DNA from: a virus
Taxonomy: Duplodnaviria; Heunggongvirae; Uroviricota; Caudoviricetes
Strand: one strand, 5' to 3'
DNA length: 27,296 nucleotides
IMG/VR virus record: IMGVR_UViG_2531839440_000002
Under the pieces are notes generated by a model. That model was not told the origin of the DNA. It did no database searches and was given only the letters and a program-made list of their open reading frames with translations. A program made the translations under genes and the position numbers. This document shows, piece by piece, positions 1-27,296 of this stretch; position 1 is the stretch's first letter; every line of letters starts with the position of its first letter.

Positions 1-1284
1 TTACTTCTTCGCCTCTGCAACCACTTTGCTACCCACGCCGCGATTATTGTATTCCCACATGCGGTTGTAGTTAGTGTCATTCAGATTGCGCTGTATTTCG
101 TCGCTATCGTCAACGCTGCCGGTATTACCCGCAAATGGACGATTGGAAATCACCGCATCGCCCCACGGTTTAACCGTGTTAAAACCTTCGTTGATGGCGC
201 TATCACGGATCACCACCTGACCGTTGGTATTGGCATCAACATCCAGCGAGCGGCCCAGTTGTGCCACGCCATCACCGGAAGCATTGAAACGGCTGTTTAC
301 GGCGAGGAAACCGTAATAGATGTTGGACAGCGTAGCCGGTGCAAACACATACGCTTCTTGCTGAGTACGTGAGTTCACCACGCGGAATTCGGTGTTATCG
401 AACACCACTGCGCCGCGACCAGAAACGATATCCACATCCCCTTCAATATAGCTGTTGGTCACCAGCGTACGCGGCTGACGGTTGGTTTCCAGACGGTTCT
501 GCACACCGCTGTTGGTGACAAAGAAGGTGTTCTGACGACCGAGAATGTTAACGTTGTTAATCTGTACCTGGTCACCATCAGTACGCAGTGCCACCGCCGG
601 ATGGTTACCTGCATCTACGCTATCGCCCAGCGTGTTTTCGATGGTCAGATTTTGCAGTTGCAGGCCATTGTTTTGTGACCAGAAGACCGCAGAGCAGAGA
701 ACACCGATACTGTCGCTGCGTTTGCTCTGGCAGCTATCGTACATATACCACGCTGGTTTACCTGGCATATATTTGCCGCGCGGGTTGACGTCGTGACGCC
801 AGTCGGTAGGGCTCATGCCACCATCAAGGGAAAGCCCAATCTTCACATCAATCGGTTTTTCACCTGTACCGTACAGAGTAATTCCACCCGGAGCGGCAGG
901 GACATATACCGTTCCCTGATACTCACCAGGCATCACGGCAATATACTGGCGCTTGTTGGTACGCTTGATAATTGCCGCATCTACCGCCGCCTGAATCGTG
1001 GTATGCGTTACACCTTGAGTGCCCGCCGGGCCGACAACAAATTCAGGTTGCGCAGGCAGGGTAATCGGGGAAGGATTCCACGCTGCAGCACCTGGTGTCA
1101 GGGATGCAAAATAGTGTTGAGCATCGAAATTCTGCGCTTCTTTTGCCGACAGAATCGGGCGAGAAGAGGTACCAGGCGCGGTTTGATCAGAAGGACGTTG
1201 ATCGGGCGGGGTTGAGCTACAGGCGGTCAGCGTCACGCCAAAAGCCAATGCCAGCGCCAGACGGGAAACTGAAAATGTGTTCAC
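1..1284 (-). CDS. ybhC: YbhC-type outer-membrane lipoprotein (pectinesterase-fold family); host gene flanking attB-lambda
   Basis: 427-aa ORF, GTG start at 1284, N-terminal signal peptide with lipobox LTAC, stop at window position 1-3; matches recalled E. coli YbhC length and N-terminus. Confidence 0.85.
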   Translation of the reverse strand: MNTFSVSRLALALAFGVTLTACSSTPPDQRPSDQTAPGTSSRPILSAKEAQNFDAQHYFASLTPGAAAWNPSPITLPAQPEFVVGPAGTQGVTHTTIQAAVDAAIIKRTNKRQYIAVMPGEYQGTVYVPAAPGGITLYGTGEKPIDVKIGLSLDGGMSPTDWRHDVNPRGKYMPGKPAWYMYDSCQSKRSDSIGVLCSAVFWSQNNGLQLQNLTIENTLGDSVDAGNHPAVALRTDGDQVQINNVNILGRQNTFFVTNSGVQNRLETNRQPRTLVTNSYIEGDVDIVSGRGAVVFDNTEFRVVNSRTQQEAYVFAPATLSNIYYGFLAVNSRFNASGDGVAQLGRSLDVDANTNGQVVIRDSAINEGFNTVKPWGDAVISNRPFAGNTGSVDDSDEIQRNLNDTNYNRMWEYNNRGVGSKVVAEAKK

Positions 1285-1320
1285 AGGTTGCTCCGGGCTA
1301 TGAAATAGAAAAATGAATCC

Positions 1321-1420
1321 GTTGAAGCCTGCTTTTTTATACTAAGTTGGCATTATAAAAAAGCATTGCTTATCAATTTGTTGCAACGAACAGGTCACTA
1401 TCAGTCAAAATAAAATCATT
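1321..1420. other. attL-type prophage junction: bacterial B arm, 15-bp lambda core GCTTTTTTATACTAA (1331-1345), phage P' arm
   Basis: Core read directly; downstream sequence GTTGGCATTATAAAAAAGCATTGCTTATCAATTTGTTGCAACGAACAGGTCACTATCAGTCAAAATAAAATCATTATTTG matches recalled lambda attP P' arm; upstream TGAAGCCT matches recalled attB side. Confidence 0.8.
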
Positions 1421-2489
1421 ATTTGATTTCAATTTTGTCCCACTCCCTGCCTCTGTCATCACGATACTGTGATGCCATGGTGTCCGACTTATGCCCGAGA
1501 AGATGTTGAGCAAACTTATCGCTTATCTGCTTCTCATAGAGTCTTGCAGACAAACTGCGCAACTCGTGAAAGGTAGGCGGATCCCCTTCGAAGGAAAGAC
1601 CTGATGCTTTTCGTGCGCGCATAAAATACCTTGATACTGTGCCGGATGAAAGCGGTTCACGACGAGTAGATGCAATTATGGTTTCTCCGCCAAGAATCTC
1701 TTTGCATTTATCAAGTGTTTCCTTCATTGATATCCCGAGAGCATCAACATGCAATGTTGTTGGGATGGCAATTTTTACGCCTGTTTTGCTTTGCTCGACA
1801 TAAAGATATCCATCTACGATATCAGACCACTTCATTTCGCATAAATCACCAACTCGTTGCCCGGTAACAACAGCCAGTTCCATTGCAAGTCTGAGCCAAC
1901 ATGGTGATGATTCTGCTGCTTGATAAATTTTCAGGTATTCGTCAGCCGTAAGTCTTGATCTCCTTACCTCTGATTTTGCTGCGCGAGTGGCAGCGACAGG
2001 GTTTGTTGTTATATGGCCTTCAGCTATTGCCTCTCGGAATGCATCGCTCAGTGTTGATCTGATTAACTTGGCTGACGCCGCCTTGCCCTCGTCTATGTAT
2101 CCATTGAGCATTGCCGCAATTTCTTTTGTGGTGATGTCTTCAAGTGGAGCATCAGGCAGACCCCTCCTTATTGCTTTAATTTTGCTCATGTAATTTATGA
2201 GTGTCTTCTGCTTGATTCCTCTGCTGGCCAGGATTTTTTCGTAGCGATCAAGCCATGAATGTAACGTAACGGAATTATCACTGTTGATTCTCGCTGTCAG
2301 AGGCTTGTGTTTGTGTCCTGAAAATAACTCAATGTTGGCCTGTATGGCTTCAGTGATTGCGATTCGCCTGTCTCTGCCTAATCCAAACTCTTTACCCGTC
2401 CTTGGGTCCCTGTAGCAGTAATATCCATTGTTTCTTATATAAAGGTTAGGGGGTAAATCCCGGCGCTCATGACTTCGCCTTCTTCCCAT
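1419..2489 (-). CDS. int: Lambda-type integrase (tyrosine recombinase)
   Basis: 356-aa ORF beginning MGRRRSHERRDLPPNLYIRNNGYYCYRDPRTGKEFGLGRDRR, recalled as lambda Int; ATG at 2487-2489; sits next to attL. Confidence 0.95.
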   Translation of the reverse strand: MGRRRSHERRDLPPNLYIRNNGYYCYRDPRTGKEFGLGRDRRIAITEAIQANIELFSGHKHKPLTARINSDNSVTLHSWLDRYEKILASRGIKQKTLINYMSKIKAIRRGLPDAPLEDITTKEIAAMLNGYIDEGKAASAKLIRSTLSDAFREAIAEGHITTNPVAATRAAKSEVRRSRLTADEYLKIYQAAESSPCWLRLAMELAVVTGQRVGDLCEMKWSDIVDGYLYVEQSKTGVKIAIPTTLHVDALGISMKETLDKCKEILGGETIIASTRREPLSSGTVSRYFMRARKASGLSFEGDPPTFHELRSLSARLYEKQISDKFAQHLLGHKSDTMASQYRDDRGREWDKIEIK

Positions 2490-4751: not shown

Positions 4752-4999
4752 ACAGCTCCCCGTTTATTATTTATCTCCTCAGCCAGCCGCTGTGCTTTCA
4801 GGGGATTTCGGATAACAGAAAGGCCGGGAAATACCCAGCCTCGCTTCGTAACGGAGTAGACGAAAGTGATCGTGCCTATAAGTGGCTTCACAACAAAGCA
4901 AAGGTATCCCCTGAACATGTCGGCAGCATTGTTACGGCTACTGGTGGAGTTGTGAAGGCGTACCAGATTCGCCCGGATCTTCCGAAGTTGTTTCCACAC
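4724..4999 (-). CDS. Hypothetical protein; C-terminal part resembles lambda orf60a, N-terminal part differs (possible deletion junction)
   Basis: C-terminal ...TFVYSVTKRGWVFPGLSVIRNPLKAQRLAEEINNKRGAVCTKHLPLS matches my recollection of lambda orf60a; in lambda exo follows, here it does not. Confidence 0.3.
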   Translation of the reverse strand: MWKQLRKIRANLVRLHNSTSSRNNAADMFRGYLCFVVKPLIGTITFVYSVTKRGWVFPGLSVIRNPLKAQRLAEEINNKRGAVCTKHLPLS

Positions 5000-5727: not shown

Positions 5728-6657
5728 ATGGCAAACACTGCTGAGATATTCAATTTTCCAGTGCCGGATGTGGCACAAAAGGAGCCGCGCGTGGCAGATC
5801 TCGATGATGGTTATACGCGCATTGCAAATGAGTTGCTGGAAGTTGTAATGCTGGCCGGATTAACACAGCACCAGCTTCTGGTCTTCCTGGCTGTCATGCG
5901 CAAAACATATGGCTTTAATAAAAAACTGGATTGGGTGAGCAACGAGCAACTTTCCGAGTTAACCGGGATATTGCCGCACAAGTGTTCTGCTGCAAAAAGT
6001 GTTCTGGTAAAGCGTGGGATTTTAATTCAGAGCGGGCGGAATATCGGCATCAATAATGTGGTCAGTGAATGGTCAACATTACCCGAATCAGGTAAGAAAA
6101 ATAAAGTTTACCTGAAAGAGGTAAATTTACCTGAATCAGGTAAGAAAAGTTTACCTAAATCAGGTAAACGCCTTTACCCGAATCAGGTAAACACAAAAGA
6201 CAAACTAACAAAAGACAATATAAAACCTTTTTCGTCAGAGAATTCTGGCGAATCCTCTGACCAGCCAGAAAACGATCTTCCTGTGGTGAAACCGGATGCT
6301 GCAATTCAGAGCGGCAGCAAGTGGGGGACAGCAGAAGACCTGACCGCCGCAGAGTGGATGTTTGACATGGTGAAGACCATCGCGCCATCAGCCAGAAAAC
6401 CGAATTTTGCAGGGTGGGCTAACGATATCCGCCTGATGCGTGAACGTGACGGACGTAACCACCGCGACATGTGTGTACTGTTCCGCTGGGCATGCCAGGA
6501 CAACTTCTGGTCCGGTAACGTGCTGAGTCCGGCCAAACTCCGCGACAAGTGGACCCAGCTCGAAATCAACCGAAACAAGCAACAGGCTGGCGTGACAGCC
6601 GGCAAACCAAAACTCGACCTGACGAACACTGACTGGATTTACGGGGTGGAGCTATGA
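5728..6657 (+). CDS. O: Replication initiator protein O (lambdoid, non-lambda allele) containing ori iterons
   Basis: N-terminus MANTAEIFNF...RVADLDDGYTRIAN aligns with recalled lambda O (MTNTAKILNF...NVADLDDGYARLSN); GGGAGGA SD before ATG 5728; alternative upstream start at 5638; internal iterons and AT-rich tract. Confidence 0.85.
   Translation: MANTAEIFNFPVPDVAQKEPRVADLDDGYTRIANELLEVVMLAGLTQHQLLVFLAVMRKTYGFNKKLDWVSNEQLSELTGILPHKCSAAKSVLVKRGILIQSGRNIGINNVVSEWSTLPESGKKNKVYLKEVNLPESGKKSLPKSGKRLYPNQVNTKDKLTKDNIKPFSSENSGESSDQPENDLPVVKPDAAIQSGSKWGTAEDLTAAEWMFDMVKTIAPSARKPNFAGWANDIRLMRERDGRNHRDMCVLFRWACQDNFWSGNVLSPAKLRDKWTQLEINRNKQQAGVTAGKPKLDLTNTDWIYGVEL
6079..6190. repeat. Origin of replication: five dyad-symmetric iterons (consensus TTACCYGAATCAGGTAA) followed by an AT-rich unwinding tract
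   Basis: Copies at 6079-6095, 6109-6125, 6127-6143, 6151-6167, 6174-6190; each half TTACCTGA is the reverse complement of TCAGGTAA; AT-rich tract 6191-6235; encodes the ESGKK repeats in O. Confidence 0.75.
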
Positions 6658-7355
6658 AAAACATCGCCGCACAGATGGTTAACTTTGACCGTGAGCAGAT
6701 GCGCCGGATCGCCAACAACATGCCGGAACAGTACGACGAAAAGCCGCAGGTACAACAGGTAGCGCAGATCATCAATGGTGTGTTCAGCCAGTTACTGGCA
6801 ACTTTCCCGGCGAGCCTGGCTAACCGGGACCAGAACGAACTGAACGAAATCCGCCGCCAGTGGGTGCTGGCTTTCCGGGAAAACGGGATCACCACAATGG
6901 AACAGGTTAACGCAGGAATGCGCGTAGCCCGTCGGCAGAATCGACCATTCCTGCCATCACCCGGGCAGTTTGTTGCCTGGTGCCGGGAAGAAGCATCCGT
7001 TAACGCCGGGCTGCCAAACGTCAGCGAGCTGGTTGATATGGTCTATGAGTATTGTCGGAAGCGTGGCCTGTATCCGGATGCAGAGTCTTATCCGTGGAAA
7101 TCAAACGCGCACTACTGGCTGGTTACCAACCTGTACCAGAACATGCGGGCCAATGCGCTTACTGATGCGGAATTACGGCGCAAGGCTGCCGATGGACTGA
7201 CTTGTATGACCGCGCGAATTAACCGTGGTGAGGCGATACCTGAACCAGTAAAACAACTTCCTGTCATGGGCGGTAGACCTCTAAATCGTGCACAGGCTCT
7301 GGCGAAGATCGCAGAAATCAAAGCGAAGTTCGGACTGAAAGGAGCAACTGTATGA
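6654..7355 (+). CDS. P: Replication protein P (DnaB helicase loader), lambda-type
   Basis: 233-aa ORF MKNIAAQMVNFDREQMRRIANNMPEQYDEKPQVQQVAQIINGVF..., recalled as near-identical to lambda P; start overlaps O stop. Confidence 0.9.
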   Translation: MKNIAAQMVNFDREQMRRIANNMPEQYDEKPQVQQVAQIINGVFSQLLATFPASLANRDQNELNEIRRQWVLAFRENGITTMEQVNAGMRVARRQNRPFLPSPGQFVAWCREEASVNAGLPNVSELVDMVYEYCRKRGLYPDAESYPWKSNAHYWLVTNLYQNMRANALTDAELRRKAADGLTCMTARINRGEAIPEPVKQLPVMGGRPLNRAQALAKIAEIKAKFGLKGATV

Positions 7356-7633
7356 CGGGCAAAGAGGTAATTATTCATTATCTGGAGACGCACAAGAGCT
7401 TCTGTGCGCAGGACGTTGCTGCGGCAACAGGTGTGACAGTAACCTGCATAAATCAGGCAGCAGCTAAAATGGCGCGGGCAGGAATCCTGGTCATTGATGG
7501 TAAGGTCTGGCGAACGGTGTATTACCGGTTCGCTACCAGAGAAGAACGGGAAGGAAAGGTGAGCACGAACCTGATTTTTAAGGAGTGCCGCCAGAGTGCC
7601 GCGATGAAGCGGGTGTTGGCGGTATATGGGTGA
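7352..7633 (+). CDS. ren: Ren-like protein (possibly truncated at C-terminus)
   Basis: 93-aa ORF starting MTGKEVIIHYLETHKSFCAQD with ATGA overlap to P, as for lambda ren; sequence becomes AT-rich immediately after its stop. Confidence 0.65.
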   Translation: MTGKEVIIHYLETHKSFCAQDVAAATGVTVTCINQAAAKMARAGILVIDGKVWRTVYYRFATREEREGKVSTNLIFKECRQSAAMKRVLAVYG

Positions 7634-7927
7634 TTAGTTATTACTTGATTTGATGGTTATCTCGAAAACATCCAATCAAATTTAATGGTTTGCTTTGTGC
7701 GGGGAACTATAACAATGTTTCTAGCTTGGTGCTGTATGAATTAGTGAATTAGTAGGGAATATATCCACACATTGATTAACACAAAAATATTTTAGATATT
7801 AAATGTAACTCAAAGGATGAGTAATAATGGTTGTGTAGCGTATAACAGGATGCTGAGGTAGTATTAAACAATGAATAAATCTGATTGACAAGCACCAGAT
7901 AATACTGCGGGTCAATCATTAGACATG

Positions 7928-7962
7928 AACGCCACTAGTTACTGAGAGTAACTAATGGCGTT
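7928..7962. repeat. Near-perfect 16-bp inverted repeat (hairpin) 3' of the HD-domain gene
   Basis: AACGCCACTAGTTACT / gag / AGTAACTAATGGCGTT with one mismatch; no clear U-tract on either strand. Confidence 0.4.
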
Positions 7963-8003
7963 GTGTTTATAGTTAAGATGTTTTTTAAAACATCAGGGGG
8001 GCT

Positions 8004-8885
8004 CTACTTGTCTTTTTTAATATGATCAATCTCATCATTAAGACATTTATCTATTTTTTTTATTAACACATTAATTTCTTCGGTGTTTTGGAGTTGAGTT
8101 GTCTTAGAAACAAAAACTCGAATAAAGAATTTAACATAGTGATAGGGTTGAAGTACATCGTTATACTTACATAAATCATTTATTGTATACTTGCCGCCTG
8201 TTTCTTTTTTTATTATTTTAGCTTGACTTGTATCGATATCTTTAAAGTTATCTTCAATCTGAAAATCAAGAACCCATTCATCTTCTTTTAAATTATCCTC
8301 AATGATTTTGTTGATTTTCTTAGATATATTTTGTTTATATTTTTTGTATCTGTTGTCGGAAATGTTAACATTAGAAAACGTGTGTTTTTTTTCATATATT
8401 TTTTTCCAAACATTTCTATCAACAATATCTTGAATTATAGCTTGAGAATTTTTATCTAATGTGTTTTTAAGAGTGTTTTCTAAAAACGTTTTGTCTGGGT
8501 TTTCACGATAAAAGTGTTTGATGGACTCAATGAGAGTGTTTTTAGATTTTAAAGAGACAACATCATCAGTTTTTTTTCTAGAACACGCTTTGTTAAGCAT
8601 CGCAGATAGTGCACGATTGGTCTTATGAAAATAAACTTGACTATAAAGCCCACTTCTTGCATTGGCAAATTCTAGTATTGAATCCATACCACTTTCTTTA
8701 TATGCCAGGTAAACACTATTTTCAACTTTCACAGGAATAAATGACATTAATAATCGTCCATAATCATAAATCCCATATTTAACGCCGGAGAAGTAGCTAT
8801 CTCTAAGTAGGTAGTCCATTCTGTCCGCATCTATAGGTGAAGATGATATGATTGAACCTAATAAAGGATATACATTTACTCCCTC
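8004..8885 (-). pseudogene. HD-domain phosphohydrolase (dGTPase/SAMHD1-like), C-terminal fragment displaced by IS1
   Basis: Frame open from 8885 to stop at 8004; contains DADRMDYLLRDSYFSG motif; in frame with the N-terminal fragment once IS1 and one duplication copy are removed. Confidence 0.75.
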
Positions 8886-8940
8886 GGTGATGCTGCCAAC
8901 TTACTGATTTAGTGTATGATGGTGTTTTTGAGGTGCTCCA

Positions 8941-9216
8941 GTGGCTTCTGTTTCTATCAGCTGTCCCTCCTGTTCAGCTACTGACGGGGTGGTGCGTAAC
9001 GGCAAAAGCACTGCCGGACATCAGCGCTATCTCTGCTCTCACTGCCGTAAAACATGGCAACTGCAGTTCACTTACACCGCTTCTCAACCCGGTACGCACC
9101 AGAAAATCATTGATATGGCCATGAATGGCGTTGGATGCCGGGCAACAGCCCGCATTATGGGCGTTGGCCTCAACACGATTTTACGTCACTTAAAAAACTC
9201 AGGCCGCAGTCGGTAA
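8941..9216 (+). CDS. insA: IS1 InsA
   Basis: 91-aa [43 protein letters not shown]..., GTG start. Confidence 0.9.
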
Positions 9217-9638
9217 CCTCGCGCATACAGCCGGGCAGTGACGTCATCGTCTGCGCGGAAATGGACGAACAGTGGGGCTATGTCGGGGCTAAATCGCGCC
9301 AGCGCTGGCTGTTTTACGCGTATGACAGGCTCCGGAAGACGGTTGTTGCGCACGTATTCGGTGAACGCACTATGGCGACGCTGGGGCGTCTTATGAGCCT
9401 GCTGTCACCCTTTGACGTGGTGATATGGATGACGGATGGCTGGCCGCTGTATGAATCCCGCCTGAAGGGAAAGCTGCACGTAATCAGCAAGCGATATACG
9501 CAGCGAATTGAGCGGCATAACCTGAATCTGAGGCAGCACCTGGCACGGCTGGGACGGAAGTCGCTGTCGTTCTCAAAATCGGTGGAGCTGCATGACAAAG
9601 TCATCGGGCATTATCTGAACATAAAACACTATCAATAA
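9135..9638 (+). CDS. insB: IS1 InsB reading frame (transposase made as InsAB' by frameshifting)
   Basis: 167-aa ORF ...[44 protein letters not shown]...; overlaps insA. Confidence 0.85.
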
Positions 9639-9653
9639 GTTGGAGTCATTACC

Positions 9654-10328
9654 TACTCCCTCAATGTTATTTTTAAAATCATATCTTTTATCAACAATTT
9701 TTATAATGCTTTCTGGATTAATAGCCGCTATGTTTTCTTTATAGACATCGTCGTCATTTGATTTATCTTGGGCTTCATTTTTTAATTCTTCAATAATTTC
9801 TTTAATAAAAATACATGATACTTGTTCGTGGGTTAACTTGTCATTATCACTTAAAGATATAATCTTATCGTATTGTTTATTTCCTTCAGTTTTGCATTTT
9901 TCTTTGAAATCTTTTACGGATATTGCAAAACTATCGAATTGGTGGGCAAGTGGGCCATGCCCAACATCGTGTAACAATGCTGCAATACGTAACTCCTGTA
10001 TAAGACTTGAAGGCATTTTTTTTATATCTAAATATAGATCAATGCCCATATTTTTTCGATTGTAAATTAGTGCATTTAAATCAATATTTTTTAATATTTC
10101 ATACGATAAATGCATTACACCGACAGAGTGTTCAAAGCGAGAGTGCATTGCAGAAGGAAATACTTTATATAGAAACGTGTTCTGCCTGATATCTCGTAGT
10201 CGTTGGAATAAAGGATGGTCAATTATCTTTTTTTCTAGCTTAGTTATTCGAATCACTCCATGTATGGGATCTAAAAACTTCCCCAGAAGTAAGTCTTCAA
10301 AGTTCTCAAGTTTGTTTTTGTTTGTCAT
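9654..10328 (-). pseudogene. HD-domain phosphohydrolase (dGTPase/SAMHD1-like), N-terminal fragment interrupted by IS1
   Basis: ATG at 10326-10328; 225 codons up to the IS1 boundary; motifs HSRFEHSVGVMHLS and LLHDVGHGPLAH; the listed ORF 9573-10328 reads 26 codons into IS1 before stopping. Confidence 0.75.
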
Positions 10329-10389
10329 GAGGCTTTCCTTTTGCTGTAGTTATAATACGAAATTTAAATAGTAATGATGTTTATAGTTT

Positions 10390-10418
10390 CAATGTGTTAT
10401 CTAATGGTTAACACATTG
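10390..10418. promoter_or_regulatory. Dyad-symmetric element CAATGTGTTA-N9-TAACACATTG upstream of the HD-domain gene; candidate operator
   Basis: Perfect 10-bp inverted repeat arms read directly, about 60-90 bp 5' of the HD gene start. Confidence 0.3.
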
Positions 10419-10687
10419 TGATGTAGCATATCAATATGGATTCATATGTTCAATTGGTCTGTGGAGTTTAGTTATGAATAAGATTGATTCTGGTAATACT
10501 TTGTAGTTTAAGCTAGAGGCGGGATTCGTGATGTTCAAATCAGTATGTAATGGAGGTTGTGCATTAGTACTTGCTGCTGGAAATTAAAAATAAAGTTGCA
10601 AGTAATCGACGTTTTCCGAGAGGAGGATGTAAGCATCGCTGACCAAAAAGTATCAACGATGCCTGTTTTGTTTTAACTACAAATTAA

Positions 10688-12190
10688 TTAAATTGCATCT
10701 GCAAACTCTGGGATTTTTCGCTCAAGTATGATTGATGAGTTGCTGTTGTCGCTTTTTTTATTTTCATGATTACGAATAGCCAATGACTCATTAAAGTCTT
10801 TTGCGACTGCTGTCTCAATAAATTCAATTTCTGAATCAGAGTGTTTTTTAACAGCTTCTTTGATCTCATCCAGAGTAACATAGAAAAACTCTTTTCTACG
10901 ATTTACAAGATTGACTCTCTTTTTATCGAAGACATCATGTAGTTCTTTTTCTAATGATGGAGCGTCCTCCGAATAAATCATGGCATGCACATCAAAAATA
11001 AAAGGAACAGATGCATCACCAAGCTCATTTACACGGTCTTGTGGATCAAGACGTCGTGTCATGCCTATTTTATAAACATTCTCCCCAAAAGAACCTATGT
11101 TCGAAATAATATAAACATGACCTTGTTTGGTTTGTTGTGCCATGGATAATGCTCTTTGATGCTTTGATTCAGCCTGCGACAAACTCTGTTCTAGTTCGGC
11201 AATGCGATTTTCGAGGCGCTGCTTCATGTCACCAGTAACTTTTTCCATTTCCTTTCTTGCAGCTTCAATTGCTTTTTTATAACGGCGCTCTTCTGCCTCT
11301 GCGTCTTGCATGGCCTTTTCTATTTCTCGTTGTGCACGCTCCTCCTCTCTCATTTGTGCCCTTATTTCTGCCTGTTCTTCTTTTTCTTTCTGTTTTTGCT
11401 CACGATATTCATGGGTAAGCCACAACTCCTCAAGTTTTTTATTAAGGTATTTAGTATTTATATATATGTGATTTTGCTCGTTTAGTTTATTTATGGCCTC
11501 AAATGCCTTTGTGATGCGTTCTTCCATTTTAGTGATATTTTTCCACGTGCAATTACTAATTGCAGCATCACATTCATTATTAAATGCTCTAGTAGTTAGC
11601 CTAATATTTCTGTCTGTCATTTTTTTACCCTCTGCTCGAGAGCCTTCAACAGTCCATTGGGTTGTGCAATATACTGCACCAGAGTGGGTTTTATCCCGCA
11701 GCATTAATTTCTGTTCATCCCTGATGGATTTTATTTTGTTTTTAAATTGCTCTGAATCTTCAAAATTAAAATGAGGTTCGTAAAATCCTAGTTCGGCTAG
11801 TTCAACATCTTCTGAATAAATAGAAATTTGCTTTACTAACTTATCATATATTTCTTTCTTCTCTTTATAAGTTCTTCTTAGTTCTTGGATTTGTTTATTG
11901 ATACCATCCATTTTTTCAATGGTGTTTGTTAGTTCATTATTGGCATTTTCTTTTACTTTTTGGGACTCTTCTTTTATAATGGAGCATTCTTGCTCTGTTT
12001 TCTCAATAAGCTTCTTACATTCCTCTTCCATATTAAAATAATCTGCAAAGCGAGATTTGTATTCTTCATTTTTTTGATTGCTATCACTTAATTCTAATTG
12101 TATTTTTTTGATGCGTTTGATTGCAGCTATATATAGAACAAGAACAACCAATAAAAATATGATTGCAAGTAATAGTGGAGTTTGAGTCAT
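10688..12190 (-). CDS. Membrane-anchored coiled-coil protein with DUF4041-like central region and C-terminal T5orf172 (GIY-YIG-like) domain; candidate defence protein
   Basis: 500 aa; N-terminal helix PLLLAIIFLLVVLVLYIAAI; long K/E-rich heptad segments; C-terminal GHVYIISNIGSFGENVYKIGMTRRLDPQDRVNELGDASVPFIFDVHAMIY...; AT-rich. Confidence 0.8.
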   Translation of the reverse strand: MTQTPLLLAIIFLLVVLVLYIAAIKRIKKIQLELSDSNQKNEEYKSRFADYFNMEEECKKLIEKTEQECSIIKEESQKVKENANNELTNTIEKMDGINKQIQELRRTYKEKKEIYDKLVKQISIYSEDVELAELGFYEPHFNFEDSEQFKNKIKSIRDEQKLMLRDKTHSGAVYCTTQWTVEGSRAEGKKMTDRNIRLTTRAFNNECDAAISNCTWKNITKMEERITKAFEAINKLNEQNHIYINTKYLNKKLEELWLTHEYREQKQKEKEEQAEIRAQMREEERAQREIEKAMQDAEAEERRYKKAIEAARKEMEKVTGDMKQRLENRIAELEQSLSQAESKHQRALSMAQQTKQGHVYIISNIGSFGENVYKIGMTRRLDPQDRVNELGDASVPFIFDVHAMIYSEDAPSLEKELHDVFDKKRVNLVNRRKEFFYVTLDEIKEAVKKHSDSEIEFIETAVAKDFNESLAIRNHENKKSDNSNSSIILERKIPEFADAI

Positions 12191-12616
12191 TCGTGCTATT
12201 CCTTACGGACAATTTAAGACGTTTTGTATTAAATCCTGTTCAATGTGTATGCGGGTGATTGCTACCGCTTACAATCTTCATAATTATCAGTTAGATAGAC
12301 TCGCTAGTAAATAATTTCATTTTTTGCAATATTCTTATTGAATATTTCAATTTATGAAATGAGCTCTTTATCCTTTCAAGGCGAAAGGTTTCTTCTTCGG
12401 AAATATTTGCTCTCGTGTGACGTATAAAGGCCTTTGATTTTTAAAAAACAGTAGGAAATAATATAGTTACAGTCGGCCTGAACACCCGGCGGTGGGGTTG
12501 CGCTAAACGGGGACGTTTATGCGCACATACAATCTAAACTCTCTTCTCCCTTCACAGATGCAGAAATGCACCTGCGATTTTTTGCATCCAACGTTTGACC
12601 TCTGCGGAGGTGAAGC

Positions 12617-13072
12617 ATGAACCTACCACAAGATGGCATCAAATTACATCGTGGCAACTTCACCGCTATCGGCCAGCAGATCCAGCCTTATCTGGAGGAC
12701 GGAAAATGCTTTCGCATGGTGCTTAAACCGTGGCGTGAGAAACGCAGTCTTTCCCAGAGTGCACTCAGCCACATGTGGTACAGCGAAATCAGTGAATACC
12801 TTATCAGCAGGGGTAAAACGTTCGCCACTCCAGCTTGGGTAAAAGATGCTCTCAAACACACATATCTCGGTTATGAAACCAAAGACCTGGTTGATGTCGT
12901 AACCGGTGATATCACCACTATCCAGTCGTTACGCCATACCTCCGACCTTGATACCGGAGAGATGTATGTCTTCCTGTGTAAGGTTGAAGCCTGGGCGATG
13001 AATATTGGCTGCCACCTGACTATTCCGCAGAGCTGCGAGTTCCAGCTGCTGCGTGATAAGCAGGAGGCGTAA
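12617..13072 (+). CDS. ybcN: YbcN-like lambdoid nin-region protein (151 aa)
   Basis: [58 protein letters not shown]... recalled as DLP12 YbcN family; GGAGG SD upstream. Confidence 0.65.
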
Positions 13073-14639: not shown

Positions 14640-15111
14640 TTATTGTTTAACCCATAATAATTCATTGACATTGAATCCCAACTTTTGAGCGGTTCGCACA
14701 TAGTCTGCTTTTACTTTATCTGGAATAGTTGGGGTCCTTGCCAGAATCCATAGGTATTCTCTGTTCGGACCACTGACAAGAGCATACTTATACTCATCAT
14801 CCAGTTTGATTACATTATAGCCACCATAGAAGGGGCCAAAAAACGAAACCTTCAACGCTGCAGTTTTAGTATCTCCAGTAAAGTATGCTTTACCTTCGCT
14901 CTCGCTCCATTTATTTTTCGTTGGATCGTATCCACGGTTAAGTACACGAATCCCTCCGTCGTTCCGTTTTCCATAAGTAGCGCTGACCTGTTCCAGACCA
15001 CGTTCGAATCGGTTCTCGAGGCGAGCTATTTCATACCACTTTCCGAGGTAGCGGTTGGCGTCAAAATTTGTAATCGGCTGCACACCTTTAGGTGGTGTCG
15101 GGACCTTACAT
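14640..15111 (-). pseudogene. Blc-type bacterial lipocalin, main body separated from its start and signal peptide by an IS66-family insertion
   Basis: NFDANRYLGKWYEIARLENRFERGLEQVSATY...KVSFFGPFYGGYNVI matches recalled Blc; the reported TTG start at 15120-15122 lies inside the IS terminal repeat. Confidence 0.8.
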
Positions 15112-15141
15112 GTAAGCGTCAACGGAGCACCGTATTGACGC

Positions 15142-16754
15142 TTATTTATTGGTGAGTACTACGTTCCATGGCAGGAGTTCGTCAACACGGTTGGAGGGCC
15201 ATTCCGGCAGTACGCTCAGAATATGGCGCAGATACGCTTCCGGATCGATACCGTTCAGACGGCAGGTGCCGATCAGCCCGTACAGCAGTGCTCCACGCTC
15301 GCCGCCGTGATCGCTACCGAAGAACACGTAATTTTTCTTTCCGAGACAGACTGCACGAAGCGCTCTTTCCGCTGTGTTATTGTCCACCTCCGCCAGACCG
15401 TCATCACTGTAATAACAGAGGGCGTCCCACTGATTCAGTACATAGCTGAACGCTTCACCCAGTCTGGATTTTTTCGACAGCGTGCCATTCTTCTCCACCA
15501 TCCATTCATGCAGCGACGTCAGTAACGCTTTGCTTCGCTGCTGCCTGGCTGCAAGACGCTCTGACTCTGGTAATCCCCGTATTTCATCCTCGATGGCGTA
15601 CAGTTCACTGATTCGCTTCAGGGCTTCTTCTGCCGTCGCACTTTTGCTGCTGATGTATACATCGTGGATTTTTCTCCGGGCATGAGCCCAGCACGCAACT
15701 TCTGTCAGCGCACTACCTTCACGTTCTGCACTGAACAGCCTGTCATAACCTGTGAACGCATCCGCCTGCAGGATACCCCGGAAGGGGCGGAGGTGTTGCT
15801 CCGGGTGTTTCCCCTGCCGGTTCGATGAGTACGCGAACCAGACCGCCGGAGGAGATGACGAACCCGCATTGCGATCATCCCGGACATACGTCCAGATGCG
15901 CCCTGTTTTCGTCTTTTTCAGGCCCGGTGCCAGTACCTTTACCGGTGTGTCGTCAGTGTGAAGCTTGCGGGTATTCATCACATAACGGTACAGGGCATCA
16001 TTCAGCGGCGTCATTAACTGGCAGCACGCGTCAACCCAGTTGGAGAGTAATGCACGGCTCAGTTCGACACCCTGTCGGGCAAAGATTTCACTCTGACGAT
16101 ACAGTGGCAGGTGTTCGCAGTATTTTCCCGTTAACACGCGGGCAAGTAATCCGGGGCCCGCGATACCACGCTCTATCGGGCGGGACGGCGCCGGTGCTTC
16201 AACGATGCAGTCACATTTTGTACAGGCTTTTTTACCCGTTCTGTGCGGATCACTTTCAGGGCGCTGCTCACCAGTTCCAGTTGTTCTGCGCTGACTTCCC
16301 CCAGATAATCCAGCTCACCGCCACACTCCGGGCAACAGCTTTCTTCAGGCTCCAGGCGGTATATTTCACGGGGAAGGTGTGCCGGTAACGGACGACGATG
16401 GCGCGACTGTCGCAACTGGCGGGGAACCAGCGGGTCATCCTCACGCCCACTGTAACGATCGCTTTCCTGCTCGCGTTGTTTCAGCAGGGCTTCAGCCTGT
16501 TCAACCTCACGACGCAGTTTTTCAGAACGGGTTCCGAACAGCATCCGGCGCAGTTTTTCTATCTGAGCCCGCAGATGCTCTATTTCTCGCTCATCTTCTT
16601 CGATCTTTTCTTCGGCACGTGCCAGTGCAGAGCGCAGGAAGGCCTCCGTCTCTTCAACCAGACTCAGTTGCTGGTCTTTCTGACGGAGGGCTTCAGCCTG
16701 CTCAGAGAGCAGCCTTTCCAGCTCAGCGATGCGAATGAGGTATTTCTGACTCAT
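15142..16754 (-). pseudogene. IS66-family transposase TnpC, split into two reading frames by a frameshift
   Basis: N-terminal ORF 16173-16754 (coiled-coil plus CxxC zinc-finger region) and C-terminal ORF 15142-16137 (DDE region); span length 1613 is not a multiple of 3. Confidence 0.75.
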
Positions 16755-16784
16755 GGCCGTTTTTATAATCCGGCCCGGCGTTTT

Positions 16785-17135
16785 TTACAACATTGTCAGT
16801 GCGTTAAGGCGGGATGTTTTTGGCTGACGCCAGTCCAGCTTATCGAGGAGCATTGCCAGTTGCGAGCGGGTAATGGATATCTTACCGTCACGCACCGCAG
16901 GCCAGATAAACTGACCTTCCTCAAGGCGTTTGGTGAACAGGCACAGACCATCAGCATCAGCCCACAGGATTTTAATCGTGTCTCCCCGTCGGCCACGGAA
17001 GATAAACAGGTGACCGGAGAAGGGGTTATCATCCAGCACATGCTGTATCTGCTCCCCCAGACCGTTGAAGGATTTACGCATATCAGTAACGCCGGCAACG
17101 AGCCAGATACGGGTACCTGATGGGAGTGAAATCAT
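16785..17135 (-). CDS. IS66-family TnpB (orf2)
   Basis: 116-aa ORF MISLPSGTRIWLVAGVTDMRKSFNGLGEQIQHVLDDNPFSGHLFIFRGRRGDTIKILWAD... Confidence 0.85.
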   Translation of the reverse strand: MISLPSGTRIWLVAGVTDMRKSFNGLGEQIQHVLDDNPFSGHLFIFRGRRGDTIKILWADADGLCLFTKRLEEGQFIWPAVRDGKISITRSQLAMLLDKLDWRQPKTSRLNALTML

Positions 17136-17566
17136 CGTCCCCTCCCGGTCAGCTCACGGATCAACACCGTGAGCAGCTCTGGTGAAGGATTTTCCAGCAT
17201 CATTTTACCGTAATGGAATTCCGCATGGCAGGAAGCTGCACAAGCAACTGATAATGCCTCCGGAGCAGGAGCATCTGTAGCACAGCGCGGGGTGTCGATA
17301 AGTTCCACTGGAACCAGAGTCGGAGAGGCCGGAAAAGATTGTGATACTGTAGGGCCTACAATAGTTGGAGGCATTCTACGGGAAATACGTCCTTCTCTTT
17401 GCCAGAGGCGTAGCCATTTAAAAATCAGGTTGTTATCAACGCCATGTTCCCGGGCCAGTTGTGCAACATTGGCATTTGGTTTCGAAGCCAGTTCAACCAT
17501 ATGAAGTTTAAATTCATTAGAAAATATCCGGCGGGTTCCGGAGCGCCAGTCTGTAGGTTTATCCAT
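17132..17566 (-). CDS. IS66-family TnpA (orf1)
   Basis: ATG at 17564-17566 (track start 17569 is TTG); MDKPTDWRSGTRRIFSNEFKLHMVELASKPNANVAQLAREHGV...; overlaps tnpB start. Confidence 0.8.
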   Translation of the reverse strand: MDKPTDWRSGTRRIFSNEFKLHMVELASKPNANVAQLAREHGVDNNLIFKWLRLWQREGRISRRMPPTIVGPTVSQSFPASPTLVPVELIDTPRCATDAPAPEALSVACAASCHAEFHYGKMMLENPSPELLTVLIRELTGRGR

Positions 17567-17651
17567 CAATAGAACTCCGTCTAATTTAGAAGGAGCTCTA
17601 ATTTAGTCTGCAAGGAGCAGGTGTTACAGACGGCATTGGCTTTACGCTTAC

Positions 17652-17712
17652 CCTTACATGCTATAAGAGTGAAAGAGAGTGCAATGCCAGTCAACACAGG
17701 CCATAACTTCAT
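17652..17712 (-). pseudogene. N-terminal fragment of the lipocalin gene (signal peptide with lipobox), cut off by the IS66-family insertion
   Basis: ATG at 17710-17712; MKLWPVLTGIALSFTLIAC then runs into the duplication; joined to 15111 downwards gives ...LIACKVPTPPKG... in frame. Confidence 0.55.
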
Positions 17713-18864: not shown

Positions 18865-19020
18865 TTGTATGCGATATCATCCAAAAGGATGAGTTCCTGC
18901 ATGCAGGATATTTACAATCGTAAAAACTACACTATGATACCCAGAGTGTCAGTTTGTATAAAAACTCTGTTTACGCTGAAGAAACCATTGAGATGCAACT
19001 TAAAGTTGGTGTATTTGCCC

Positions 19021-19926
19021 CTATATTTCCAGACACCTGTTATCACTTAACCCATTACTGGCCCGCTGCCGTAGATATTCCCGTGGCGAGCGATAACCCA
19101 GTGCACTATGCGGATGCCATTCGTTATAATGCTCGAACGCCTCTGCAAGATTCTTTGCTGCCGTTAACCCGTCTGGTTTGGGCATGATACTGATGTAATC
19201 ACGCTTTATCGTTTTCACGAAGCTCTCTGCTATGCCGTTACTCTCCGGACTCCGCACCGCCGTGTTCTTCGGTTCAAGTCCCAACATCCGAGCGAACTGG
19301 CGTGTTTCATTAGCCCGGTAGCATGAACCATTATCCGTCAGCCACTCCACTGGAGATGTCGGAAGCTCGCTGCCGAAGCGGCGTTCCACCGCTCCCAGCA
19401 TGACGTCCTGTACTGTTTCACTGTCGAAGCCGCCCGTAGTGACCGCCCAGTGCAGTGCCTCACGGTCACAGCAGTCCAGCGCGAACGTGACTCGCAGTTT
19501 TTCTCCGTTATCACAGCGGAACTCGAACCCGTCAGAGCACCATCGTTGATTGCTTTCTTTCACGGCCACTTTGCCAGTATGTGCCCGTTTCGATGGCGGT
19601 ACAGCGGTTTTTCGCTCAAGCAACAGCGCATTCTGGCGCATGATCCGGTAAACACGTTTGGCATTGATAGCAGGCATACCATCAAGTTCGGCCTGTCTGC
19701 GAAGCAGCGCCCATACCCGACGATAACCATACGTGGGCAGCTCTCCGATAACATGGTGTATACGGAGAAGCACATCCGTATCATCTGAGTGACGGCTGCG
19801 GCGACCATCTTTCCAGTCATCGGTTCGTCTGAGAATGACGTGCAACTGCGCACGCGACACCCGGAGACAACGGCTGACTAAGCTTACTCCCCATCCCCGG
19901 GCAATAAGGGCGCGTGCGCTATCCAC
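19021..19926 (-). CDS. insD: IS2 transposase OrfB
   Basis: 301-aa ORF with DDE-type region ...WCSDGFEF...DNGSCY... Confidence 0.9.
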
Positions 19927-20249
19927 TTTTTTGCACGCCCGTATTCAACGGCTTCTTTAAGGAGTTCATTTTCCATCGTTTTTTTGCCGAGCAGGCGCTG
20001 GAGTTCTTTAATCTGCTTCATGGCAGCAGCAAGTTCAGAGGCAGGAACGACCTGCTCTCCTGCGGCCACAGCAGTAAGACTTCCCTCCTGGTATTGCTTG
20101 CGCCAGAGAAATAACTGGCTGGCTGCCACACCGTGTTGCCGGGCAACAAGGGAGACCGTCATTCCCGGTTCAAAGCTCTGCTGAACAATAGCGATCTTTT
20201 CCTGTGTAGTACGCCGTCTGCGTTTCTCCGGCCCTAAGACATCAATCAT
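19884..20249 (-). CDS. insC: IS2 OrfA (helix-turn-helix)
   Basis: 121 aa from [47 protein letters not shown]...; the track ORF begins 15 codons upstream. Confidence 0.85.
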
Positions 20250-20551
20250 CTGTTCTCCAATGACTAGTCTAAAAACTAGTATTAAGACTATCACTTATTT
20301 AAGTGATATTGATTGTCTGGAGATTCAGGGGGCCAGTCTAGTTGGTAAACATGCCAGTCAAAATATATAATATTATGATTCCACGCAGCTATATATAATA
20401 TAACAGATTGGTTTAATAATTTGTCTTTGTGAGTTAAATACATAATTTTATACTTGTGATGCAATGAGATTTTCCTTATTGTTGAACTGGCGAATATTGA
20501 TTTTCCACCTATACTTACCTGGTGTAACCCCAATGATATCAGGTGGATAAT

Positions 20552-26712: not shown

Positions 26713-27296
26713 TGGCATTCAGAATGAGTGAACAACCACGGACCATAAAAATTTATAATCTGCTGGCCGGAACTAATGAATTTATTGGTGAAGGTGACGC
26801 ATATATTCCGCCTCATACAGGTCTGCCAGCAAACAGTACCGATATTGCACCGCCAGATATTCCGGCTGGCTTTGTGGCTGTTTTCAACAGTGATGAGGCA
26901 TCGTGGCATCTCGTTGAAGATCATCGGGGAAAAACCGTCTATGACGTGGCTTCCGGCGACGCGTTATTTATTTCTGAACTTGGCTCGTTACCGGAAAATG
27001 TCACCTGGTTATCGCCGGAAGGGGAATATCAGAAGTAGAACGGCACAGCCTGGGTGAAGGATACGGAAGCAGAAAAACTGTTCCGGAGCCGGGAGGCGGA
27101 AGAAACAAAAAACAGCCTGATGCAGGTAGCCAGTGAGCATATAGCGCCACTTCAGGATGCTGTAGATCTGGAGATCGCAACGGAGGAAGAAACCTCATTG
27201 CTGGAAGCCTGGAAAAAATATCGGGTGTTGCTGAACCGTGTTAATACAACAACTGCACCGGATATTGAATGGCCAACAGTACCCATTATCGAATAG
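26712..27296 (+). pseudogene. tfa: Tail fiber assembly protein Tfa with in-frame amber codon at 27036-27038
   Basis: [37 protein letters not shown]... then ...[22 protein letters not shown]... continuing in the same frame to a stop at 27294-27296; lambda Tfa has Trp at that position (recall). Confidence 0.75.

Follow-up and report, generated by a model that had tools for sequence, protein, structure and literature searches.

The closest described counterparts of the gene considered here are enzymes with an HD domain that act on deoxynucleoside triphosphates (dNTPs). Yu et al. (PMC7854603) have defined a family of SAMHD1-like prokaryotic HD-domain dNTP triphosphohydrolases (dNTPases), with the A1 allosteric site and the equivalent of H376 of human SAMHD1 as its signature and a nucleotide-activated tetramer among its criteria. 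The nucleotide-depleting defences known from bacteria belong to the Dgt-like type, and their relationship to human SAMHD1 is remote; they comprise the experimentally validated defensive deoxyguanosine triphosphate hydrolases (dGTPases) Sp-dGTPase and relatives (Tal et al., preprint 10.1101/2021.04.26.441389), the dGTPase Vdg (PMC13519002) and the dNTPase CloA of Clover (PMC12265719). Ogmios, a single-gene 'putative dGTPase' cassette of the Vibrio cholerae superintegron, confers phage resistance (10.1101/2024.07.02.601686). SNIPE, or PD-lambda-1, is a membrane-bound GIY-YIG nuclease that works alone (PMC13190303). Here, we describe a 27,296-nucleotide stretch of viral DNA (Caudoviricetes; IMG/VR record IMGVR_UViG_2531839440_000002), hereafter the window, which represents a lambdoid prophage and in which a gene for an HD-domain protein, the HD gene, lies beside a gene for SNIPE and is split by a copy of the insertion sequence IS1. 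Unlike the known nucleotide-depleting defences, the protein that this gene encoded before the insertion aligns to human SAMHD1 directly.

The insertion itself is easily described. The first-pass annotation of the window had placed a copy of IS1, flanked by 9-bp direct repeats, at 8886-9653; both the coordinates and the identity of the two TACTCCCTC 9-mers were borne out, and the probability of such identity by chance is 4^-9, or approximately 4e-6. The window contains two copies of the 9-mer, whereas AP021895 and other genomes in which the site is empty have one. The element ends in imperfect terminal inverted repeats of ~23 bp (GGTGATGCTGCCAACTTACTGAT on the left and GGTAATGACTCCAACTTATTGAT, written as the reverse complement, on the right), has the slippery motif TTAAAAAAC, an A6C site for -1 frameshifting, in the overlap of insA and insB', and encodes an insB product matching Pfam PF03400 (DDE_Tnp_IS1); it is 99.1% identical to the annotated IS1A copy of AP038814. 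The event is a textbook case of insertional inactivation by IS1: it shares with the classical cases the 768-bp element, the imperfect 23-bp ends, the 9-bp duplication, the AT-rich target and the destruction of the gene, and differs from them in nothing.

The original gene can be recovered by excising the element and one copy of the repeat in silico. When 8004-8885 and 9663-10328 are joined on the minus strand, the resulting 1548 nt (divisible by three) encode 515 amino acids and contain a stop codon at the end only. The claim that the gene could be reconstructed in frame thus holds, and the open reading frame (ORF) contains the peptide quoted in support of it (DKRYDFKNNIEGVNVYPLLGSIISSSPIDADRMDYLLRDSYFSG). 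Alleles from other strains that are free of the element confirm the reconstruction with an exact match at the empty site: in complete Escherichia coli genomes the region is collinear with the window, the two flanks abut at a single TACTCCCTC, and the span is 4190, that is, 4967 minus 777. The reconstructed gene is only 2 nt from the intact allele of strain 2018-11-3CC (WP_074507652.1), the differences being K404E and E423G. As the element entered at codons 221-223, downstream of the HD motif (H120-D121) and ahead of the last metal ligand, D243, the residues of the active site are now divided between two fragments. The 5' part retains the metal ligands H67 and H120-D121, residues H124, H129 and H167-E168, and residues D37, Q42 and R45 of the allosteric site, and the 3' part holds the C-terminal lobe together with the fourth metal ligand (D243) and residues R299, Y307, H309-K310 and R379. 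Read from its own start, the 5' part runs into the element as a fusion ORF without D243 and without the entire C-terminal half. Because neither this 251-amino-acid product nor the longest ORF left on the other side, of 271 amino acids, has a complete active site, the allele is null, and we are practically certain of both the insertion and the loss of function.

What was lost is best seen from the reconstructed protein, which the first-pass annotation had described as the product of an 'HD-domain' gene; the description is correct and can be refined to a SAMHD1-type dNTPase beside the SNIPE defence gene. Pfam finds the HD domain and, weakly, HD_assoc_2. In phmmer searches of the PDB, the protein matched Aq_1910 of Aquifex (2HEK; E 1.6e-29), EF1143 of Enterococcus faecalis (2O6I/3IRH; E 6.7e-27) and human SAMHD1 (E ~5e-26, aligned over residues 19-430), as well as 2Q14 of Bacteroides and the SAMHD1 proteins of fungi and nematodes; all 30 PDB sequence matches at E <= 0.01 are to SAMHD1, EF1143, 2HEK, 2Q14 or eukaryotic SAMHD1 homologues, without a single Dgt-type chain among them. 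An AlphaFold2 model, computed for a protein 98% identical to the reconstructed one (P0001) with an alignment of 36 sequences, reached a predicted local distance difference test (pLDDT) score of 87 and a predicted template modelling (pTM) score of 0.89. The N-terminal hairpin of the model is formed by strands 16-20 and 24-28, and its C-terminal region (383-515, pLDDT ~88-96) is folded. Foldseek aligned the model with SAMHD1 structures over ~510 columns at E ~1e-18, the top 50 hits consisting of SAMHD1 chains and one SAMHD1-containing complex.

The likeness extends to individual residues. In the alignment with human SAMHD1, the metal ligands H67, H120-D121 and D243 correspond to H167, H206-D207 and D311, the further catalytic residues H124, H129 and H167-E168 to H210, H215 and H233-E234, the substrate contacts R64, Q49, R299 and Y307 to R164, Q149, R366 and Y374, and H309-K310 to H376-K377; the guanine-specific A1 allosteric site is represented by D37, Q42, R45 and R379, the equivalents of D137, Q142, R145 and R451. 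Across 36 aligned homologues, most of these residues are invariant, among them the metal ligands, H124, H129 and H167-E168, as well as Q42, R45, R379 and H309. With EF1143, Aq_1910, 2Q14 and human SAMHD1, the protein thus has in common a direct sequence alignment (E 1e-22 to 1e-29), the full-length fold, the metal ligands, the H-E dyad, the D/Q/R/R residues of the A1 site, the H376 equivalent, the N-terminal hairpin and the C-lobe; it has no SAM domain. On this sequence and model evidence, the protein very probably belongs to the SAMHD1-like family, and the gene adds a new member, uncharacterised and prophage-borne, to that known group of dNTPases. The ancestral gene was intact, as had been claimed, and it was under constraint, too: the ratio of nonsynonymous to synonymous substitution rates (dN/dS) is 0.25 between the two E. 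coli HD allele groups, and the catalytic residues do not vary among the 36 homologues.

The insertion is narrowly distributed. The window is 100% identical to contig AQEX01000014.1 of assembly GCA_000355515.2 over 20,328 overlapping bases, and the 251-amino-acid fusion ORF and the 271-amino-acid C-terminal ORF are each found, as exact protein matches, on nine independent NCBI contigs. The contigs belong to draft assemblies whose accession numbers lie close together, all with the same IS66-family insertion nearby, and a search for both IS1/HD junctions among 5,426 complete RefSeq E. coli genomes found neither. The insertion is private to one small clonal group, and since one contig of 1.23 Mb spans the element, it is real. 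It is also young, as judged from perfect duplications and the lack of a secondary lesion in either half of the gene. The suggestion of a recent event made from the window alone has therefore stood up well: to the perfect duplications and the absence of secondary stops and frameshifts can be added the distance of 2 nt from an intact allele, an intact IS1 and the narrow distribution.

Table 1. Features of the disrupted locus and of other insertions in the prophage. Positions are those of the window; TSD, target-site duplication; aa, amino acids.
Feature	Position	Strand	Size	Remarks
IS1	8886-9653	+	768 bp	transcribed opposite to the HD gene
insA frame of IS1	8941-9216	+	91 aa	intact
insB' frame of IS1	9135-9638	+	167 aa	intact
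Left TSD	8877-8885		9 bp	TACTCCCTC
Right TSD	9654-9662		9 bp	TACTCCCTC; codons E221-G222-V223 on the minus strand
HD gene, 5' part	9654-10328	-		codons 1-223; Pfam HD E 1.2e-6
HD::IS1 fusion ORF	9573-10328	-	251 aa	223 HD and 28 IS1-derived residues; WP_001686243.1
HD gene, 3' part	8004-8885	-		codons 221-515 and stop
Longest ORF left on the 3' side	8004-8819	-	271 aa	starts at M245
AT-rich HD module	7634-10629	-		between ren and SNIPE; ~30% G+C without IS1
SNIPE (PD-lambda-1) gene	10688-12190	-	500 aa	intact; directly upstream of the HD gene, same strand
IS66-family element	15112-17651		2540 bp	ends GTAAGCG...CGCTTAC; inserted into the prophage lipocalin gene at its 5' end
IS2	19010-20340		1331 bp	intergenic, between a ybgA-like gene and a helix-turn-helix gene

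The prophage lies next to ybhC, and its genes run in the order Int, YdaT, O, P, ren, HD gene, SNIPE, ybcN, ninE, ybcO, rusA, Q, lysis genes and terminase. The SNIPE gene is a full-length match to the PADLOC model PD-Lambda-1 at E 1.5e-198, over residues 1-485 of a 491-position model, and Pfam recognises in it DUF4041, MUG113 and T5orf172 (GIY-YIG/T5orf172 nuclease). Its position upstream of the HD gene means that IS1 has no polar effect on it. The two proteins are unrelated and their mechanisms differ, and of the 131 complete E. coli genomes with SNIPE among the 5,426, 110 are without the HD gene; the genes resemble each other in occupying the same prophage slot in the same orientation, in their similarly low G+C content and in that SNIPE is disrupted by IS1 or IS5 in other strains. 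The remaining 21 genomes carry the HD gene, in every case inside a prophage and beside SNIPE. As ren is directly followed by SNIPE in prophages with SNIPE only, the HD gene is a separate AT-rich module of ~2.7 kb (30% G+C against 45% for the window), an antisense-oriented moron in the known variable ren/nin slot.

Several observations on the surroundings can be added. At the left end of the window (1-2489, minus strand), the prophage adjoins ybhC, which encodes a 427-amino-acid pectinesterase-like protein; this is the attachment site of phage lambda, and an integrase of the lambda type is encoded at 1419-2489. The interval that separates ren from the end of the HD gene contains, at 7925-7965, an imperfect inverted repeat of 16 bp (AACGCCACTAGTTACT / AGTAACTAATGGCGTT) with a T-rich stretch behind it. 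This may represent a rightward terminator, though the consensus scan did not call it, and that scan, for promoters and terminators across 7600-12700, found no more sites than in shuffled sequence. A search of Rfam gave no match in or near the HD locus. In the late region of the prophage, 27055-27253 on the plus strand is a full-length Rfam match to the candidate small RNA IS009 (RF02111), with 220.8 bits against a gathering threshold of 117.

The known nucleotide-depleting defences Sp-dGTPase, CloA and Vdg are HD-domain effectors that stand alone or in small operons within defence islands or on mobile elements, a description that would also fit the HD protein, and the expected action would be the same, the starving of phage replication of dNTPs. 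We rejected the idea that the protein is a known, Dgt-like defensive dGTPase, because the PADLOC and NCBIfam models match the HD motif only: the PADLOC dGTPase model PDLC02374 gives 15.4 bits (E 0.0022) on residues 59-153 only, and the 21 bits reached with TIGR01353 are far below its cut-off of 152. Vdg and CloA were dismissed as relatives since both are Dgt-like in their own papers (PMC13519002 and PMC12265719). A two-gene system of the Clover type, with its CloB-type nucleotidyltransferase partner, was also discarded: the neighbours of the HD gene are ren and SNIPE, no nucleotidyltransferase partner adjoins it, and homologues in 24 species have no conserved partner nearby. Ogmios is likewise a single HD-type gene on a mobile cassette, and a homologue of the window protein with 44% identity lies in a V. 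cholerae cassette array as well. Since Ogmios has blastp homologues that match the DefenseFinder dGTPase model and a homologue is reported as a predicted hexamer (10.64898/2026.03.17.712381), Ogmios is probably Dgt-like.

Homologues of the HD protein are solitary and scattered patchily across phyla, in Proteus, Serratia, Klebsiella, Vibrio, Aeromonas, Flavobacterium, Paenibacillus and others. That of Proteus mirabilis, 76% identical, lies in an icd island together with CBASS, and the V. cholerae homologue mentioned above is surrounded by toxin-antitoxin cassettes in an array that resembles a superintegron; the representative of the species V. cholerae was not among the 50 loci of our genome scan. 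Running PADLOC on the neighbours of homologues in 24 species revealed Zorya II, Olokun, Lamassu, DarTG, Cas9, PDC-S06, PDC-S46 and a Dgt-type dGTPase. Some of these are directly adjacent, namely PDC-S46 and PDC-S06 in a Flavobacterium metagenome-assembled genome, Olokun in F. procerum and Cas9 in a Bacteroidia metagenome-assembled genome, and no partner gene family recurs among the neighbours. Collections of isolated phages and of plasmids contain no close copy (>60% identity) of the HD gene, and the Klebsiella 'phage' matches, at the edges of predicted prophage records, probably belong to the host flank. By these associations, an anti-phage role for the HD protein is an even bet.

Why the gene was lost is a separate question, and the first-pass annotation had considered the insertion consistent with either counter-selection or simple decay. 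Both still fit, and decay of the whole prophage and recurrent hits on the island have now come into view. Compared with its intact relative in AP021895, the prophage has suffered a deletion of ~3.5 kb with the junction at 4876-4878 and a 3-bp microhomology, CTA; exo, bet, gam, kil, the S24 (cI-like) repressor and the 5' end of cro are gone, and the prophage is thus defective. An element of the IS66 family, flanked by the 8-bp duplication CCTTACAT (15104-15111 and 17652-17659), interrupts the lipocalin gene and is itself probably inactive, its tnpC being split into ORFs of 193 and 331 amino acids, and an IS2 copy is flanked by the 5-bp duplication GTTGG (19005-19009 and 20341-20345). The IS1 in the HD gene is one of four such lesions in 27 kb, and in a genome with active insertion sequences, simple decay is the most economical reading.

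We consider the following course of events, taken as a whole, to be probable. IS1 transposed into codons 221-223 of a 515-codon gene, producing the 9-bp duplication and a null allele; the intact protein would have been a dNTPase activated by GTP or dGTP; the lambdoid prophage would have carried it in the ren/nin slot, beside the independent SNIPE nuclease, as a module acting alone against phages or depleting dNTPs; and the loss would reflect the ordinary activity of insertion sequences in a lineage where they are active, the target being an AT-rich and dispensable gene of an already defective prophage. On the cause of the loss alone, we lean only slightly towards neutral decay or target preference over selection. 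Several points weigh against this account. Neutral decay on its own leaves the repeated hits on the island (three IS1, one IS5 and several frameshifts) unexplained; the fit of the PADLOC dGTPase model is limited to E 0.002 over 95 residues; we found no published experiment showing dNTPase activity or phage protection for the HD protein or a close homologue, and literature searches, by protein accession among others, found no paper on the protein; and a 44%-identical homologue in Klebsiella pneumoniae, the representative of a cluster of 3,530 member sequences, lies in two assemblies among ordinary chromosomal genes beside a type VI secretion cluster, a context that looks more like that of a housekeeping gene than of a mobile defence gene.

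The repeated hits come from other strains. IS1 has entered SNIPE in Evo1 (CP101915; element at 6099-6866, equivalent to 11500-11508 of the window, duplication CAAATGCCT) and in TB354 (AP038814; element at ~6209-6976, equivalent to 11610-11618, duplication CTGTCTGTC), two independent insertions at different sites. SNIPE of OZ392478 is interrupted by IS5, and in HH45, EC96 and P276M the gene is shorter by 1-2 nt. The HD gene has undergone -1 frameshifts at four tracts of seven or eight adenines (coding-strand nt 975-982, 1147-1153, 1160-1167 and 1341-1348), which truncate the product to 333, 420 or 456 amino acids. The 333-amino-acid allele, from the A8 tract at nt 975-982, has four sequence variants; at least 76 contigs carry it, as does the complete genome of 1297KP. 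The 420-amino-acid alleles (nt 1147-1153 and 1160-1167) are on ~20 contigs, and the frameshift at nt 1341-1348 is that of strain R12. For comparison, the commonest intact 515-amino-acid allele is on 214 contigs, and 19 of the 21 complete genomes keep the gene at full length. Three readings fit this pattern and are inseparable by sequence: a preference for AT-rich targets combined with slippage at A-tracts, a high turnover of defence genes, and selection against an enzyme that drains dNTPs.

The first of these, under which IS1 favours AT-rich, H-NS-bound, horizontally acquired DNA and poly-A tracts slip with no selection either way, has a chance only somewhat short of even, and it is compatible with our preferred explanation and partly included in it. 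IS1 reportedly prefers AT-rich targets and depends on H-NS. The HD/SNIPE island has 30-35% G+C against 45% for the window, and the segments around all three IS1 target sites have 30-39%. The HD gene has an excess of tracts of seven or more adenines, with 7 against 3.05 +/- 1.5 after codon shuffling (P = 0.019), and all of the frameshifts observed are within or next to such a tract. On the other hand, the window offers a single IS1 copy as a sample of target preference, and the Poisson estimate of the expected number of hits is crude.

Another reading is that the loss was driven by selection: if the drain on dNTPs is costly or toxic, cells inactivating the dNTPase would outgrow their parents, and the IS1 insertion would have been adaptive. 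Under a crude uniform Poisson model, 0.2-0.6 IS1 hits would be expected in 4.2 kb over ~22 lineages, and the three observed are an excess of 5-15 times; null alleles recur, with the 333- and 420-amino-acid forms and the frameshift of R12; and nucleotide-depleting effectors are described, in the Clover paper (PMC12265719), as toxic and able to limit host fitness. Against this, the full-length gene is present in nearly all of the complete genomes that have it, and the dN/dS value indicates long-term maintenance. SNIPE, whose mechanism is different, has likewise been struck by IS1, IS5 and small indels, an indication that the AT-rich island itself or the general turnover of defence genes is responsible, not a cost specific to the dNTPase. 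Moreover, clonal sampling inflates the contig counts, some of the homopolymer indels may be sequencing errors, and the same prophage has insertion sequences at unrelated places. We therefore regard selection as an unlikely cause.

Less likely still is that the HD protein never had an immune role and was a regulator of the dNTP pool, or another phosphohydrolase, carried as passive cargo of the prophage. The family to which it appears to belong does include such proteins, SAMHD1-like dNTPases having been described as widespread auxiliary genes with homeostatic roles (PMC7854603), and both the chromosomal, non-island position of the Klebsiella homologue and the failure of current PADLOC models to recognise the HD protein agree with the idea. 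Against it, the gene is present in just 21 of 5,426 complete E. coli genomes and always prophage-borne beside SNIPE, its homologues are patchy across phyla and in several cases adjoin known defence systems, and it has the character of an AT-rich antisense moron in a known variable slot.

A contingency switch, in which the poly-A tracts and possibly IS1 would turn a costly gene reversibly on and off within a population, we consider very improbable. The long A-tracts are in modest excess and the same A8 tract has been shortened in several sequence backgrounds, but the gene is AT-rich and rich in lysine (12%, with AAA:AAG at 52:11), and the tracts coincide with Lys-Lys dipeptides, which account for them; precise excision of IS1 is rare. 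With an excess of that size (P = 0.019) so explained, the switch was set aside. Finally, the assembling of insertion sequence copies is generally hard and several of the nine contigs stop inside IS1, yet that the element was put here by misassembly of a repeat or an error of annotation is hardly conceivable given that both junction ORFs are common to nine assemblies, that the 1.23-Mb contig crosses the element, and that the perfect 9-bp duplication is of a sequence found in single copy at empty sites.

Overall, the IS1 event itself is minor, a clean and datable insertional loss in a decaying prophage. While the disruption is ordinary, a gene with on and off alleles beside SNIPE is a worthwhile experimental target. 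We tentatively propose, as a possibility that we would not call likely, that the intact gene encodes a GTP-regulated dNTPase of the SAMHD1 type that serves temperate phages as a stand-alone anti-phage module, and that its cost leads to recurrent inactivation by IS1 and at poly-A tracts, so that on and off alleles coexist. If this is true, the prophage gene would be the closest bacterial counterpart of the human restriction factor SAMHD1, with the guanine allosteric site intact. Prophages, an integron-like cassette array and defence islands all harbour the HD protein or its homologues, and should it protect against phages, the SAMHD1-type immunity of bacteria and animals would be linked more closely than through the known dGTPases. 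The natural series of null alleles, created by IS1 and by frameshifts and found beside intact ones, would provide ready material for measuring the costs and benefits of an immune gene that depletes dNTPs.

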